Assembly (NCBI RefSeq): GCF_038025025.1
Contig: NW_027117338.1
Location: forward strand, 1,922,001 to 1,986,000
DNA length: 64,000 nucleotides
Source of the DNA: Phyllosticta citribraziliensis
Lineage: Eukaryota
Direction of reading: 5' to 3'
Positions 31,853 to 41,193 of this stretch are shown here, piece by piece. The position numbers and the translations under genes are program-made. Within the stretch, counting starts at the first letter, position 1. Every line of letters starts with the position of its first letter. The notes beneath the pieces are model-generated. The model was given only the letters and a program-made list of their open reading frames with translations. It had not been told where the DNA came from and did no database searches.

Positions 31853-32844
31853 TTACGACCGGTTCCTTGCGCTACGCCTGGGCTCACCCGTCTCGGTAGC
31901 GGCCTTCTTGGGCTCACGCTTCTTCTTTGGCTGCGAATCGGCCTTCTTGGGCCTGCCAGGCCTGCCACGGCCCTTCTTCGCACCCCCGTTCTCGCCATTG
32001 GCAGCGGCTTTAGTAGTCTTCTGCTTCTTTGCTGTTGGTTCGGCGTCGTCTTGCTTGTCCTCAGACTTGCTGGTCTCTTCCTCCTTGTCGCCATTGGTCT
32101 CTTCGGCCTTTCTCTTTTCGCCAGTCTTTGCGTTTCCATTTTCCTTGGCTTCGGTCTTTTCTGCAGACTTGGCGTCGGCTGTCGGCGCGTCCTTCTTTTC
32201 TTCCTCCTTGGACGCGTCGTCCTCGTCCGCCTCGGGCGCGCCGTTCTCTTCGGCCTTTTTCTCGGGTTCCGTGTCCTTCTTCTCGGGCTCGGCGTCCTTG
32301 TTTGCAGCCTCAGGCTCATCCTCCTTTTCCTCGTCGGCCTTGTCGGCCTTCTTGTCCTCATCCGCGGGCTTTGCTTCACCGCCGTCCTTCTTCTCGTCCT
32401 GCGCCTTGTCATCGGCGGTGCCATTGGCCTTCTCCTCCACCTCTAGCTCGCTCGCTTTCTTGACGACGTCATTGCCGGAGCGCTCAACGTGCACGGCCGG
32501 GTTGTCCGGCTCCGCTTGCTTCGAAATGGTGTTGCCGCGGTGCGTGTCGACCGTGACCTCACCCTCTTTGGCAACCTCGGCGACGGTACCCGAGGGCTTG
32601 TTGTCGCCCCATTTCCATGCGACTGTACACAGAAGGTGCGGCCGTTAGCAGGGGTGTCCGTGGTGTTGAGTCCGGTGACGCGCATACGTCATGGTGCGAG
32701 CGCGGTGGAGTGCGGGACGGCGGACGGGGAGGGGAGCGGGGTGGGCAGCGAAGCCTGCGAGCTGGGCGCGGCTAGTTGCGCAACCATTGACGGATCAGAC
32801 GTACCTTGGTCGCCCTTTTGGATGTCCTGTTGATCGGCCGACAT
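31853..32844 (-). CDS. Hva1-type Tudor-like (DUF2945) protein with acidic/Lys-rich linker and C-terminal AT-hook
   Basis: Exon 1 MSADQQDIQKGDQ, intron 32623-32804, then VAWKWGDNKPSGTVAEV...NPAVHVERSGNDVVKKASEL. The tail contains KKGRGRPGRPKK. Confidence 0.8.
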
Positions 32845-33577
32845 GATGGATGAGATGGAGCGCGCGCGGGGTCAGAGGGATTGGGGCGGAGAGGCGCAAT
32901 GGCAATTGACAGGCGAGATGGAGCGCGTTGCGAAAGCGACAGTGCGCGATGAAGAGGCAAGATATGCGCTGGTGTAGGTGGACGTTGGTGGAGGTTGGGT
33001 AGGGTAGAAGTGCGAGTGTAAAGGATCGAGAGCTGAGAGCTGGCTGCGGAAAGACGGGGAAGGTCTACCTCTGGCTGCAGCAGAGAAGCTTGGGCGATCG
33101 GCGGCGCGTGCTTGTGTCCATGCTGATTCGCTCGACCGGCACCGGCGTCGTCACCACACGTGATGCTTCGGTTCTCCTCTTCCAGGCCACTTCACCTCAT
33201 TCTGCGTCAGCCTCCCTGGATGACAGCATGCCCTTTTGCGGCAGCCTCTCTCACGCTTCAGATTGGCGCTGATGGGCCGGGACCATCCAACTCACTTAGT
33301 CACCAAAGTCCCTTTGAGCGATATAGACTGCCCAAAACTCAACTACCCAATGCCCAATCCAGAGGCAGCAAGGTGAGACTCGAGGCTGATCTTCACGCCG
33401 ACCAAACTCCCCATCTTTGTCATGTACCGATGAAGCAACAAACATGGAGTATCGGCGCTACGCTACGCTCCGCTGGTACGCTTCGATGACGTCAGTGTTT
33501 ACCGTTTCTTGTTTCCAGCAACTTCGGGCTGGTTGTTTGACAAGACAACGAAACACTCCACCAAGTCCTGCAGGCCA

Positions 33578-34976
33578 TCAGCTTCCGCCCACCAGCCTCC
33601 GAAGCATCAGCACCTCATGCTTCGTGACATACACCGCGCCTCCCTCCAACCCACCTCCTTCTCCAATCGCTCCAAAGTTTTCCCCTTCCAACTCATCAAT
33701 CAAACACCTCACCTTGGCACCTTCCCACGATCCCTCGTCGTTGGTCCAAAACACCCTCTTGATGCCGACGTTGTGCATAAACGACAGGCACCTGTAGCAA
33801 GGGCGTGAGGCGCGAATTGTGCAATTCGGGTGCGAACGATCATCTGCAAGGTCGTTGCTCCGAGCAAGACGCGGAGGAGCCTTCAGCAGCGTTGTGAGTT
33901 CGTCATGGAGGGAGCCGGTTGACACTACGCTCGAATGCGACTTTGAAGAGTCAGATGCGACTCCATCCTCGTTCGAAATTACGTCTGAACAATTGCCCTG
34001 TTTTTGAGAGCTCTCACGACTCCGCCTCGGGATGCCTTCTCCAGAGTGGCCCAGCCGAGTGACATACAAGTCAGCACCCACAAGCTTCGGATGCTTCATA
34101 CGGTCCTTGAGGCTGTGGGTATCATGTCCGGATTGCCCTTTTGGCAGAAGGACATAGTGGTTCTTGGGCGTCTCCTCGCTGGCCAACGACTGACGCTTGG
34201 CTTTTGGCTTGCGTGCATTTGTGGTCCATGAAGCGGACGTATGGTGCTGCTTAACCGCAGGCTGATACGAACGACCCAGCTTCTGACCATGACCAGGGTT
34301 CTCGTTCTGGTTCTCGTTCTCGTTCTCGTTCTTCAAATGGTTCGTTGCACCCTTGGACGCTGAGCAGGGAGCGTTCAGGCATGAGCTGTCCAAATGGAGA
34401 GGCTTCAAAACGCCACTCGTTCGCTTGGGCCTGGCCAGCGCCTTGTTGTTGTTGCTGTTGTTGTTGGTGCTGCTCTTGTTGAACCGCAAGCAGGTCCTTG
34501 CAGACGCGCTCAACGTGGGCCTTGACAGCGCTCTGTCGTAGTCGGGATTTGCGTTTGGAAGAACCCGATAGTTTGAAGCACGGTTTTTGGTGGGACACGG
34601 TGCTGGCGGCCAGGGTGCTGGACGACGAGAGGGCGGAGTGAATGGCCATCATCTCCGAGTGCATGGACATTGGAGTGTTGGCGTGATGACCGCCGCCCAT
34701 GCCGCTGACGGTTTCAAACGGGGTAAAGGACTCGGGCGACTTTTTCTTGTCCTTGTGCTTGGACTTTCGCTTCAGGTTGGCAATGGCTGGTCCATCGAGA
34801 GAGACAGAGGCAAGGCGGCCCGTCTTCAGGGCGCCACCGTCGTATCCCGGACGGTAGTCGTTGAAGCCCTGGCCGATGACTTTGCCGCCGCGCACGATGA
34901 TGCAGCCGTGGCGAAAATGCATGGGCGAGAGAGCAGCCTGCTGGAGGCAGAGATTCAGGTAATGATCAGACTTCAT
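33578..34976 (-). CDS. CMP/dCMP-type zinc-dependent deaminase-like protein split over two overlapping frames
   Basis: ORF1 (34976-34251) has FRHGCIIVRGGKVIGQGFN and SMHSEMMAI. ORF2 (+1 frame, to 33578) has GADLYVTRL, SRPCYRCLSFM and GIKRVFWT. Together they make one complete deaminase fold. Confidence 0.8.
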
Positions 34977-35715
34977 GTTGGCGCAGTATTGTAGCTGGGT
35001 CGACTTTGACAATGTCTGGTTTGCTGAGAGGTAATCGGAATGGAGCGTGCGATGACTGGCAGTGGTCGCGGAGCGCTGTCTGTGATGCGGAGAGGGTGGC
35101 ACCGGGCACGGGAGCGCGCGCAGGACCGACAGCCGACGACAAGCTGGACTTGACGCGACCTGCCCTGGCCCGACGGGTGTTTCCTTGCCAGGATGCCCCG
35201 CAAACAGCATGCTCATGTCGCGTTTCTGCATTGCATCACATCAAAACGCTATTTGTCCAATTTTGACTGCATGCCGAGTCAAAAGACTCCCAATGTCGCC
35301 TCTCCAATACGGCCGATGCACCGGCGACTGGCTGAGGTTCGTTGCGGTTAGATCCAGGTGAAACGGCGCCCCGTGAAGCCTCCCTTTCATCATGGCAAGC
35401 AAGCCTTTTCGTTCGCGCAATGCGTCGACATGTTCTGGCCCCCAGCGAGCAGCATTTCCTCAAGCTCTAGAAATGAGCCTTGGTCCCAACCACGTGCCTT
35501 TAAACCCAATATAGCCGGCCCGGGCGGTCCTCTCGGTCCAACGCTTTTCACTTCATTTCATCCCTTTCTCCTGGCTCCCCCGCTCCCTTTCCCTCTCCCT
35601 TCACCACCGCCGCCGCTCGAGAGACGGAAGAAACCCACTGTCGCGCCGTCTGGTACCGTGGCGCAACCAAGGCCTTCCGAGTCCCTCTCCCCCCCGTCCG
35701 GCGCGTCAACCTTCC

Positions 35716-37632: not shown

Positions 37633-39258
37633 CTAGGAGGAGGAGGCCGCCGGAGCAGCACTGCGCTCGGCGCAGTACTTGGCGACCTCCTTGCTCAGGC
37701 TGGTTTGCTGCAAGCGCACAAGCTCCATGATCTCGGCGGTGCCGGGTTCATCGGCGCAGTACTGCTCGACTTCGACCATCTGAGCCAGGACGGCCTGGAG
37801 CTGGTTGGGGAGCCACTGCATCACGCTGTTAGTTAAAAGGTTTCGTTGGCGCGGGTCAGAGCTTGCGATTGACTTACGGTGACGATGGGACTGCCGCCGG
37901 TGGCCGTCGGGTGCGCAGTGTGCTTGAGAATGTACTCACGCGTGAAGCACCAGTGGCGCCAGCGGAACTCGCGCACAAAATTAACGGCACGCAGGTACAG
38001 TAGGGCCGACTTGGGGTCACGCAGGGCAAAATCCTTGAGGTTGGCCATTTCGGCATAGTCCTTGACGGCCTCGAGGAACTCGCGGTGGTTTCCCGGGCGG
38101 TACTGGCGAAAGTCCTTGAGGATCTCGGTCAGCGGCGTGTCTGGCATGGAAATCTGAAGCAGATTGTCGCAGAGCGGAATCTATGAAAGACGTGGTCAGC
38201 CAGCAAGATCAAGGGAAAGAGCAGGGCCAAGGGAAATACCATGCTGTCATTGGCTCCAGACTCGCCACGGAACGCCATTGGCTCGTCGCTGACGCCTTCG
38301 TACACGACGCCGTTGGGGAACATGCTCTGGCTGGTGATGCCAAAGATGAAGGTGCGGAACGTCACGTAGCCGCTCGGCTTGCTCTTCTTCCACATGGTGT
38401 CCATGACGGCATTGATCTTTTGAAGAGCCTGGAGCATGTCGGCCATGCCGTCGTCGAACTTGGCGCGCTCGCCGCCAAGGGCGCCGTTGAGAGCATCAAC
38501 GGCGCCCTTGACCAGCTTGCCCGAATGCCTGACCATGGCGATGTGCACGAGCACGAAGCCGGCCTCGTCGGACGTCGAGTCGAGCCCCTTTTCAAAGGCC
38601 CGGACCAACCGCAGGTTGTCGTACTCGAGACCCTCGGCCGGGTTCTCGAGGCGGTAGTTGTACAGGGCATAGGAGCCCGCGTACTCCATGAATGGCTTGA
38701 AGCCAGCACTGCCAAGCGTCAGTAACCAACGGCCGATTCGACGTGTGATGTTTGAAGTAGGAGAGGGAGGAGGAGTAAAAGAGATGGGAAGACGACATAC
38801 ATTTCGGCAACCTTGGTCATCGGCTTCGCAATGGCAGCCGGCAGCCGCTGCCTCCCCAGACCGTAGCCGTCCTCGCCGCGGACGAAGCGCTCATGGCACG
38901 GCTCGAGCAGGTACGCGCTCAGCAGGAACGAGTAGTCGCGGTACACGGCCGTCATGAGCGCCGCGTCGTCGCGGTACTTGTCCACCTCGGCGCTCAAGTC
39001 GGGCAGCTCACGCTCGACGGCCTCACCCAGCTTGCCCTGGGCCAGCAAGCCCGGGGAGCCGTCGGCCTTGACGATGGGCATGCGCGACAGGAGCGACTCG
39101 AGCGGCGCGAAGCCGGCCGGCAACGTGGCCGGTGGCTCAATGCATGGCAAGAAGCCGCGGTGCGAGGAGACGGTGAAGGGGGGAGTGGAGGCATCAATGG
39201 GAGTATGAGGGTTGAGAAGGGGGAAGGGGAAGACAGGGGGAGCAGGGGCCGGCGCCAT
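37633..39258 (-). CDS. Indoleamine 2,3-dioxygenase family heme protein (likely the fungal IDO-gamma/IdoC type)
   Basis: Motifs HRGFLP, YRDYSFLLSAY, EAGFVLVH, FRTFIFG, FRGESGANDS, YRPGNHREFL, FRWRHWCFTREYI and TATGGSPI. Three introns. Confidence 0.88.
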
Positions 39259-41193
39259 TGCGAAGCAAGATGTAGTCGATGGTTTTGTTTGAGACGAACA
39301 AGTTGAGGTTCCAAAAGAGCAGAGGAAGACTGGAATTGTCCGCGGTGCGGTGGAGAGAAGAAAGAAAAAGAGAACTCCAAGCCATGGCGGTGGGGGACTC
39401 GAGCTGCATATATAGATCGAGGCCGGAATCAATCCGGCCTCAAAGCACAACAATTCCGGCCTCTCTTGTCAACCGTCCTGCACCCATGAAGATCCCCCGA
39501 CTCGTATCTACACGCACCCTAGCGGCGCCCTCCCTTCGGTTCCTCTAGGGTAGGGCCCGGTCCGTTCCCTTTCCTCTCCCAAGTGCCTTTTGTCAGTGGT
39601 CCGCCGGCTTGACAAAGACCCGACACCCAGTGACTGCACCTTTCACGTACGTAATCGCTCGTGCTTGTCCAGCACCGTTGCCCATCCGTTCTCCTCCGCC
39701 GCCTTTTTTGATGGACTTGCAGTGGATGACGGCCGTGTCCAACATTTGTGCACGCTGTTTTGCAGCTTGCTTCCTCTAGTCGCAGGGCTCACACCATCAG
39801 CGGGAATGCTGCCCGCGCATTGGCTGGTTTGTCCGACTAAAACACCTTGCTTTTGTCCTTATCGCTGCTCGTTGCTGCCGTCTGATAGCAGCCATCTGCG
39901 ACGGTGCGTGCGCTCACCTTTCGGGCGACGAAGCTCCAGCGGAATAGCGCGAAGCGTTGAGGAGCTTAAATTTCCGCTGGATGAGCGAGCGGTGCGGATA
40001 TTCGTCCTATTGGTTCCGCTTCCACACCGTCGACTCCGCACCGCCGCGCCCGCCGCGTCGGTCCATGGATGCGATGTGATGTGACGCGTCTTTATCTCGT
40101 CTCGGACAAGGCGGTCCCAGGGCACAAGTTGCTGGGCTGCGAGGTCAGCTGGGTGGCTGTGTTGGCAAAGAACAATGGCAGTTTCTCTTCGGCTGTGGTC
40201 GCGCCATCCAATCAGAGCGCTCCAATTTCCGCAGCTCATCACTCAACTCAAGCCTCTTCTCGTCCACGCACGCACCTCAAGCTCGATTCGTCTATTTGCT
40301 GTCCAGGCTGTTGGTCATATCCGCTCCATTCCTTCCAGTAGCGCTTCTTCGGCGACCAGCAGACGAGGAATGCGAGCGAGGCTTGGGCGCTTATCGTCGG
40401 CTCTGCTCTGATAAGACCCCGGAATCCGTAAAGCAAACGAACGCTCCGTGATAGGGCAGAAAGATTGCCAGGTCGTGTCCGAGCGACGTGCACGCGCATC
40501 TCGAGCGAACGGCCAGAGCGCGGCACTTGTGGTGGATGGTCGGGTCCATGATTGGTCTGAAGGTGTGCAGATGACCGCATGCAATGTATCGTGCCGTGGT
40601 GTACCTACATTTCTCATTGCCGGTCAGATCTGTGTGCCACAGCGTCAAGCGGCAGCATCGCCGGTGAAAAGACGGCACTGGTGTGGTGTTTGACGCGCCA
40701 TGATTGGTCGATAGGTTTGATGTTTGGGATGGTCGCTGGCTGCTTGGCTTAGCTTTGCGGTGGATTGGCGATACGGAGCGACTAGATGGTGTTTGACCAG
40801 TAGCGGTGTTGGCGGAAAGCGGTCCCCTAGGATGCGAGTAGTCCAACACCAGGCTAGATCTCACGATGTAAGCTCATCGGCTTGCGAGGGCGGGATCCCT
40901 AACGGCTCATCATGTTGTAGTGGGCTTGGACCTGCCCGAAAAGTGCGGAGGATGACGGCAGGAGTCTGCATCTTCGCCTATTCCGACAGGTCAAGACTAA
41001 CTTGGCCGTGTCCTCGGAACCGGATCTGGTAGGCGAATGAGGCTCCAACAGCCCGACCAGCTGTCTCATAGTGGGCACGCGAGCCTTCAGCCTTATTTTA
41101 GCCACACGATGAGCGGCGTTTCCGGCTTGGTACCCAAGTACCCTGCGCCGGGCAGGAAGTGCTGTCAGAAAAAAGTCATCCCTGCTTCAATGT

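Follow-up and report, generated by a model that had tools for sequence, protein, structure and literature searches.

The 64,000-nucleotide (nt) stretch of Phyllosticta citribraziliensis contig NW_027117338.1 analysed here (positions 1,922,001 to 1,986,000, in the following the window) carries on its minus strand a gene for a zinc deaminase of the cytidine deaminase (CDA) fold, the two halves of which are encoded in two overlapping reading frames (Table 1). The first open reading frame (ORF), referred to as frame 0, starts with an ATG and contains the HSE motif, which is the HxE half of the zinc site. The second one lies in the +1 frame, is open directly after a TGA and contains the motifs GADLYVTRL, PCYRC and GIKRVFWT. 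Both HxE and PCxxC are needed for the zinc site of CDA-fold deaminases, PCxxC contributing two zinc ligands. The overlap of the frames measures 398 nt, and the passage from the first to the second requires either a +1 change or the removal of 3n+1 nt. A deaminase split over two frames with an overlap of about 400 nt had been described in an earlier note on this DNA, and coordinates and motifs were borne out. Since the first methionine codon of the +1 frame comes later than the conserved LLPKG (104 codons past the first conserved +1-frame motif), the second half is left without an AUG start of its own. Only the first half is matched by a Pfam domain (PF00383, cytidine/deoxycytidylate deaminase zinc-binding region, E 5.7e-7, 29.8 bits at a cut-off of 25), while the C-terminal half alone did not give any Pfam match.

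Orthologues were collected with a profile of C-half ORFs, which retrieved 80 fungal metagenome contigs. Together with the window, 81 sequences were obtained, of which 60 (window included) harbor both halves according to tblastn. The frame break was seen in all 60 two-half sequences, and an orthologue with an uninterrupted ORF, as considered in the earlier note, was not found among them. A short element (nGn TTT GAA) was identified by its pattern in 59 of these sequences, 15 to 33 codons past YVERVC, the last conserved motif of the N half, up to which the conservation of frame 0 among homologues extends. A variant of the element, TGG TGT TTT TCA, is found in L032. In 58 of the 59 loci the TTT of the element is in the frame of the N half; in the exception (L045), it is in phase with the exon following a canonical upstream intron. 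In the window, this TTT is codon 190 of frame 0, and the sequence GAG TGG CGT TTT GAA (EWRFE, 34418-34404), put forward before as a candidate shift site, coincides exactly with this element. With both the discontinuity and the element recurring in dozens of orthologues, chance is far from sufficient to account for the arrangement.

The element was compared in 44 distinct copies of 84 nt each. The letters TTTG are invariant in all 44 (zero entropy), and the frame-0 codon after TTT is GAA in 40, GTA in three and GAT in one of them. The 15 nt before the site are strongly conserved as well (core CAAGAGTG), with column entropies between 0.16 and 0.9 bits from position -15 to -5. At other places in these genes, TTT accounts for 99 of 329 Phe codons and GAA for 223 of 754 Glu codons, and the other Phe-Glu pairs are encoded by TTCGAG (16), TTCGAA (11), TTTGAG (9) or TTTGAA (4). 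Judged from these sequences, the conservation of the element is higher than coding constraint would demand.

Stop codons were tried as a means of locating the frame change and were given up, the bracket being too wide: the last +1-frame stop lies at least 149 nt upstream of the element (149 to 260 nt in 40 of 40 measurable representatives) and the first stop in frame 0 follows it by at least 57 nt (57 to 360 nt), the codon after UUU being a sense codon. The pattern of differences between the copies was considered codon position by codon position. Pairwise differences, which are descriptive only, amounted to 363, 237 and 524 at frame-0 codon positions 1, 2 and 3 in the stretch from -21 to -1, and to 226, 110 and 67 at +1-frame positions 3, 1 and 2 in the stretch from +6 to +26. 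Up to TTT, the substitution periodicity resembles that of frame 0, and from 6 nt after it that of the +1 frame. Changes in the codon before TTT are synonymous in frame 0 (CGT/CGA/CGC; GGT/GGG) but radical in the +1 frame (V/D/A/G). From 13 nt after TTT, the +1-frame codons encode H (43 of 44, 7 synonymous variants), L/V/I (12 synonymous variants) and N/D, while the same letters read in frame 0 give S/R/Y/P/C/L. The tail of frame 0 past the site is not conserved (0 to 4 synonymous and 12 to 24 non-synonymous variants per codon). By these patterns, the coding signal crosses from frame 0 to the +1 frame inside the invariant TTTGAA.

Relative to the N half, the C half is found in the +1 frame in 23, in frame 0 in 20 and in the +2 frame in 16 out of 59 sequences. 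Whatever the frame of the C half, the element is always readable in +1 and phased to the N half. Most of the variation in the C-half frame is due to a separate intron directly preceding this half. Of the 24 representatives which need a phase change before the C half, 18 contain strict canonical signals (a GTAAGT-type donor plus a CTRAY branch). Among the 44 representatives, 12, including the window, have a +1 frame without a break between the element and the C half, and in eight it is in phase but interrupted by stops. In many orthologues (among them L003, L015, L029, L031, L050, L073 and L075), short introns of 46 to 58 nt with a GTAAGT or GTAAGC donor and a CTRAY branch are located just before LLPKG, 30 to 90 nt before the C-half match; the window and 11 further representatives do not have this intron. 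Between the halves, the linker differs widely in length and composition among species, and in the window it contains a CAA-repeat and a GAGAAC-repeat tract. The last +1-frame stop of the window is the TGA made by the conserved Glu-Met-Met codons of HSEMM, and the conservation of the frame-0 sequence, and not selection, may account for the long two-frame overlap.

Contigs of four public runs from four studies (X1, X2, X3 and X6) were compared with positions 33400 to 35200 of the window, skipping the CAA-repeat tract. X1 and X2, obtained from the same organism as the window, gave one contig each (33400-35085 and 33400-35078, respectively) with 0 differences and 0 gaps. X3, from another organism, and X6, from a relative with less than 95% identity, show the same colinearity with the genome at the site. 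The only listed indels within the overlap measure 6 and 3 nt, and none is located at 34404-34412 in any contig compared. No joint was reported in the contigs, and the predominant RNA appears to keep the discontinuity. The contigs of X1 and X2 start right after Illumina adapter letters (35085 and 35078), as does X3 at 35025, which points to a defined transcript 5' end and not to random genomic fragments. An assembly indel and an intron of 3n+1 nt had both been named in the earlier note as possible explanations of the discontinuity; the two same-organism runs reproduce the window over 33400-35085, and an intron of this kind is not removed in any contig of the four runs. The contigs of X3 break at the GAGAAC-repeat tract. 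A terminal poly(A), which would mark cDNA-derived contigs, was not found in any of the loci, internal A/T runs near the ends being present in two. The X1 contig extends approximately 76 nt past 33400, and that of X2 runs 1077 nt past this position toward the downstream neighbour, a gene for a Hva1_TUDOR domain protein (PF11160, E 7.7e-14); the transcripts of both genes may overlap or read through. Another gene on the minus strand of the window, encoding indoleamine 2,3-dioxygenase (IDO, PF01231), consists of two ORFs around a canonical intron of 92 nt, as predicted from its sequence.

Table 1. Features of the deaminase locus and of further genes mentioned in the text (window positions)
Feature	Position	Strand	Description
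Frame-0 ORF	34251..34976	minus	ATG 34976-34974 to TAA 34253-34251; 241 amino acids (aa) (P0001)
HSE motif	34653..34661	minus	HxE half, in frame 0
+1-frame ORF	33578..34648	minus	stop 33580-33578; 356 codons (P0002); TGA 34651-34649 directly before
First Met of +1 frame	34097..34099	minus	after LLPKG
GADLYVTRL	34052..34078	minus	+1 frame
PCYRC	33788..33802	minus	+1 frame
GIKRVFWT	33743..33766	minus	+1 frame
ORF1 as decoded (predicted)	34407..34976	minus	codons 1-190, ATG 34976 to TTT 34409-34407; helix 1, strands 1-2, HSE
Proposed +1 shift site	34404..34412	minus	CGT TTT GAA in frame 0; (G)TT TTG AAG in +1
5' flank of site	34413..34424	minus	orthologue consensus core CAAGAGTG; window copy diverged, GAGTG alone kept
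ORF2 as decoded in +1 (predicted)	33581..34405	minus	275 codons; strand 3 (DLYVTRL), PCYRC, strands 4-5
Unshifted frame-0 tail	34251..34406	minus	51 codons, low complexity, TAA 34253-34251; 241-aa product without PCxxC
CAA-repeat tract	34438..34482		linker
GAGAAC-repeat tract	34297..34332		linker
52-nt 'intron' of public models	34360..34411	minus	GTTTTG...CAG; unsupported
145-nt 'intron' of P0003	33568..33712	minus	GTGAGG...CAG, near the 3' end
Apparent transcript	33324..35085	minus	contig ends; 3' end computed from record length, not seen directly
Hva1_TUDOR domain protein	31856..32644	minus	downstream neighbour
IDO gene	38132..39468	minus	two ORFs
IDO intron	38709..38800	minus	92 nt, GTATGT...TACTGAC...CAG; predicted from sequence

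The closest database proteins are Phyllosticta gene models, of which that of P. citribraziliensis is 100% identical over the N half and 97% over the aligned C half (81% of the query). The C half matches 383 database proteins. Models of the family come from Dothideomycetes, Sordariomycetes, Leotiomycetes and Lecanoromycetes and are annotated as 'CMP/dCMP-type deaminase domain-containing protein' only. In four Phyllosticta models, the junction of the two frames is made in three different ways: those of P. citribraziliensis and P. citricarpa use the 52-nt GTTTTG...CAG, and the other two jump earlier. The junction ANEW|PSKGA is found in P0003 and P0004. Ten further species show other junctions, the stretch of the element being read in frame 0, read in +1 or cut out. 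When 208 proteins were scanned, the frame-0 pattern of the element was found in 19 (with at least three of them, P0029, P0164 and P0167, apparently matching by chance in another part of the protein), the +1 pattern in 41 and neither in 149, many of the latter being short C-half ORFs which do not reach the element. The 120 listed proteins which have an N half and reach 423 aa are all eukaryote gene models with modelled introns, and none results from plain ORF calling; among the listed C-half matches, a Pfam domain was not found in any plain ORF call. Introns are evidently invented by annotation pipelines to rescue the frame, as far as can be judged from these sequences. In P0003, the P. citribraziliensis model, a further 'intron' of 145 nt is taken out close to the 3' end, by which the conserved C-terminus (VRCLIDEL...VYVTKHEVLMLRRL) kept by all other homologues is replaced. 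The 3' end of this model looks wrong, since the contigs are colinear there, too. In six Pleosporales models of 840 to 880 aa (P0130, P0131, P0134, P0145, P0146 and P0154), the N half is joined to a 7-bladed lactonase/YbhE domain (PF10282), probably because the gene caller merged neighbouring genes at a locus that confuses annotation.

The residues of both zinc motifs, H114, S115 and E116 as well as P405, C406 and C409 (numbering of P0018), are invariant in 44 homologues. An AlphaFold model was calculated for P0018, an annotated full-length homologue and not the window's own product, with 43 relatives as alignment. The mean predicted local distance difference test score (pLDDT) of this model is 60, with core segments between 72 and 94 and values below 50 over most of residues 180-297 and 331-391; most residues between the halves are predicted to be disordered. 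The N-half part comprises a helix (3-14), two strands (22-29 and 32-38) and a second helix (115-136) starting just after HSE (114-116), while the C-half part comprises a strand (314-320), a helix (407-416) starting within PCYRC (405-409) and two further strands (420-424 and 430-434). In a structure search with the model against 48,161 PDB representatives, the core aligned over model residues 1-444 to complete deaminases at Z 10-14. The matches include 3dmo_A (Z 13.9, root-mean-square deviation 3.1, 121 aligned residues), 4p9c_A (Z 12.6), 6vpc_F (TadA-8e, Z 12.4), 1tiy_A (Z 12.2) and 7nz7_A (ADAT2, Z 11.7); the best scores lie close together, and none of the subfamilies is singled out by them. 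A sequence search of PDB with the N half returned nothing significant (best E 0.14; TadA 2nx8 E 0.46), and a search with the C-half profile gave no match. According to the model, both halves build one alpha/beta deaminase core, and the frame change falls between helix 2 and strand 3. HxE, PCxxC and the helix-strand core are shared with other CDA-fold deaminases (cytidine and dCMP deaminases, TadA/ADAT2 and guanine deaminase), whereas the two zinc motifs are approximately 290 residues apart in P0018 (H114, C406).

We propose that the full-length deaminase is produced by a conserved programmed +1 ribosomal frameshift, to which a probability of roughly 0.6 is assigned. The interpretation given in the earlier note, that recoding is needed for the full enzyme, is supported, since none of the three findings which it named as counter-evidence (uninterrupted orthologues, an assembly indel, a 3n+1 intron removed from the RNA) was made in the sequences and contigs compared. 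After initiation at ATG 34976, ribosomes would translate 190 codons in frame 0. At CGT TTT GAA, the peptidyl-tRNA-Phe would be bound to UUU in the P site, with GAA in the A site, and a fraction of the ribosomes would slip one base forward and go on with AAG CCU CUC CAU in the +1 frame. The shifted ribosomes would end at 33580-33578, giving a predicted trans-frame product of 465 aa (190 plus 275), while ribosomes that do not shift would yield the 241-aa protein containing HxE. The zinc site of the latter would be incomplete, because PCxxC with its two zinc ligands is missing. UUU is the likeliest P-site codon, because UUU and GA(A) are fixed while the preceding codon changes its amino acid (Gly/Arg/Ser/Asp). 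Decoding might be slowed down by the non-preferred A/T-ending codons (UUU; GAA/GTA/GAT), and stimulation may come from the conserved 5' block, either via the RNA or via the nascent peptide. Alternatively, a Leu-tRNA might bind out of frame at UUG while UUU is in the A site.

Several points weigh against this proposal. UUU_GAA is not known to us as a +1 shift site, and tRNA-Phe would re-pair poorly on UUG. The proposed A-site codons GAA, GTA and GAT are all non-preferred and A/T-ending, yet GAA is not rare, as it makes up 30% of the Glu codons in the same genes. The hexamer alone is not sufficient, because TTT GAA also encodes 4 of the 40 other Phe-Glu pairs and is found in frame at 34718-34713 of the same ORF. 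With RNAalifold, no pairs were predicted for the region from -40 to +70 in 38 copies, so that a conserved RNA structure was not found. The 44 copies of the element are related, and the counts obtained from them are not independent events. Only the library of X6 is on record as RNA-Seq; the RNA status of X1, X2 and X3 is a guess, backed only by the adapter-flanked ends. Furthermore, minority isoforms are dropped from contigs, by which a rare or condition-specific processed RNA may have been missed, and the stretch compared does not include a spliced control intron. Two candidates for signals in the RNA were discarded. Hairpins sketched by eye were dropped, since RNAalifold predicted no pairs, and a loop of the Ire1/HAC1 type (CNGCNGN) upstream of the element was rejected by eye, the letters differing among loci.

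Instead of a shift of the ribosome, 3n+1 nt could be removed from the RNA, either as a poorly spliced or condition-specific intron (e.g. 34411-34360) or by unconventional splicing, the colinear RNA then being the unprocessed majority. The use of exactly the 52-nt intron in two public Phyllosticta models is in line with this explanation, as are the guessed RNA status of three of the four runs and the minority forms that contigs can hide, and an event at a fixed place would likewise conserve the phase. However, all four runs are colinear and the 52-nt stretch is retained in all contigs compared. In 10 of 44 copies, the stretch opens with GA, GC or GG instead of GT, and a GT further upstream is not conserved either. 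The interior of the stretch is protein-like in the +1 frame, being kept as such in P. capitalensis and P. citriasiana, and the sole indel there in a relative is 3 nt long. The earlier note had seen no strong GTRMGT donor or CTRAC branch in the overlap. In agreement with this, 104 formal GT-AG candidates of 3n+1 nt which would give an open frame were counted in the window, and none of their 11 distinct donor hexamers fits GTRNGT; the 52-nt candidate does not contain a CTRAY branch, whereas ordinary introns in the same genes carry canonical signals. As the frame switches within approximately 6 nt, there is room only for the removal of 1 or 4 nt, which no spliceosome does. A conserved spliceosomal intron joining the frames is not supported, and removal at the RNA level as a whole is considered unlikely.

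The place of the frame change at an invariant T run would also suit RNA polymerase slippage or the editing of a single U out of GUUUUG, since one U fewer gives the +1 frame and a minority mRNA one U shorter would be read normally. The run, however, consists of only three Ts in 10 of 44 copies (GATTTG, GCTTTG, GGTTTG), whereas the runs known to be prone to slippage are far longer than three Ts; an indel at 34404-34412 is not present in any contig compared, and we know of no U-deletion editing of fungal nuclear mRNAs. This origin of the shift is held to be highly improbable. Even less probable is the production of the halves as separate polypeptides which assemble with each other, the second one starting internally at a non-AUG codon such as the UUG of the +1 frame. 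This frame lacks an early AUG and contains an invariant TTG, and non-AUG initiation is reported to occur in filamentous fungi (PMC5487733). Separate polypeptides would not need the phase of TTT, yet it is held in 58 of 59 loci across 15 to 33 variable codons; the T before and the A after TTG are also fixed, and the site lies 570 nt and several AUGs past the first AUG. An assembly indel or a decaying pseudogene can hardly be considered any more. The low-complexity linker with its CAA and GAGAAC repeats is prone to indel errors, and the contigs of X3 break in it (34297-34332), but the window sequence is reproduced without a single difference by two independent runs of the same organism, the break is present in all 60 two-half sequences and both halves are under protein-level constraint. 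The gene is not a pseudogene, because the halves, the element and its phase are all kept in four fungal classes. The +1 ribosomal frameshift remains the preferred explanation.

Sites at which a +1 shift on UUU is followed by a less favoured codon are proposed for influenza A PA-X and the UUU_CGN sequences of amalgaviruses. The deaminase site resembles these in that UUU is the proposed shift codon and the next codon is less favoured. In the viral sites, the tRNA can re-pair on UUC with CGN in the A site, whereas re-pairing on UUG with GAA in the A site would be required in the cellular deaminase gene. Very few fungal cellular genes are known to need a ribosomal frameshift; those met in the literature consulted are antizyme, EST3, ABP140 and YFS1 in yeasts and YIP3 in Pezizomycotina. 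Antizyme (OAZ1/SPA) +1 frameshifting is conserved from fungi to mammals, including sequence 5' of the site (PMC1874602). The deaminase gene shares with antizyme the chromosomal location, a short ORF1, a longer and partly overlapping +1 ORF2 without a start of its own and a shift that, in the deaminase, would likewise be obligatory for function. In contrast to antizyme, which shifts next to the stop of ORF1, the deaminase site has a sense codon in the A site and frame 0 is open for at least 57 nt more; a 3' structure resembling a pseudoknot was not found by RNAalifold between -40 and +70, and the deaminase is not known to be linked to polyamines. A regulatory switch like that of antizyme or PA-X, as put forward in the earlier note, would at this site therefore not follow antizyme in detail.

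Sites of the Ty1 type (CUU_AGG_C) cause +1 shifts in the chromosomal genes ABP140 and YFS1/YPL034W of Saccharomyces cerevisiae (PMC12719033). These genes have in common with the deaminase a +1 shift, proposed in its case, at a sense codon of a cellular gene, an invariant heptamer and synonymous-type variation in frame 0 before and in +1 after the site; the evidence for YFS1 additionally includes Ribo-seq and reporters (PMC12719033). The CUU_AGG_C sites exploit tRNA peculiarities of Saccharomycetaceae, while the sequence in the deaminase is nGn_UUU_GAA. The shift of YFS1 occurs in a single yeast family, some members of which have lost it, whereas that proposed for the deaminase is seen in models from four Pezizomycotina classes and no unshifted orthologue was found. 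A frameshift in YIP3 (PaYIP3), mostly -1, has been described in Pezizomycotina (PMC3777964; PMC5009743). This gene is likewise cellular, its frameshift is reported to be conserved across Pezizomycotina, and no other such case was found in the literature searched; unlike PaYIP3, the deaminase would shift in +1, without a detected structure, and its shift would split a single catalytic domain. A literature report of the deaminase gene or of its proposed frameshift was not found, subscription journals and supplements being outside the search.

A more far-reaching version of the frameshift proposal would be that UUU_GAA is a new eukaryotic +1 site which reads the decoding state of the cell and gates a potentially mutagenic, nucleic-acid-directed deaminase, which an inefficient frameshift would keep at trace level. 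This version is regarded as improbable. GAA and GTA are decoded by tRNAs which need a modified wobble uridine, and starvation or stress lowering this modification would consequently raise the synthesis of the full enzyme. A nucleic-acid-directed activity would be in line with the basic low-complexity inserts and the restriction to Pezizomycotina. C-to-T mutation of repeats is known in Pezizomycotina, and its assignment to the deaminase is speculative.

Because the junctions differ and are unsupported in every model inspected (four from Phyllosticta and ten others), the public protein sequences of the family are probably wrong around the junction. For recoding research, the site would offer a compact cassette of approximately 30 nt. 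If the proposal is correct, one more frameshift-dependent gene would be added to those of fungi, kept in at least four classes of filamentous ascomycetes and with a shift sequence that differs from those known. A single catalytic domain would be cut in two by the shift, so that the unshifted product would be inactive, and the gene encodes an uncharacterised deaminase, the output of which seems to be limited on purpose.

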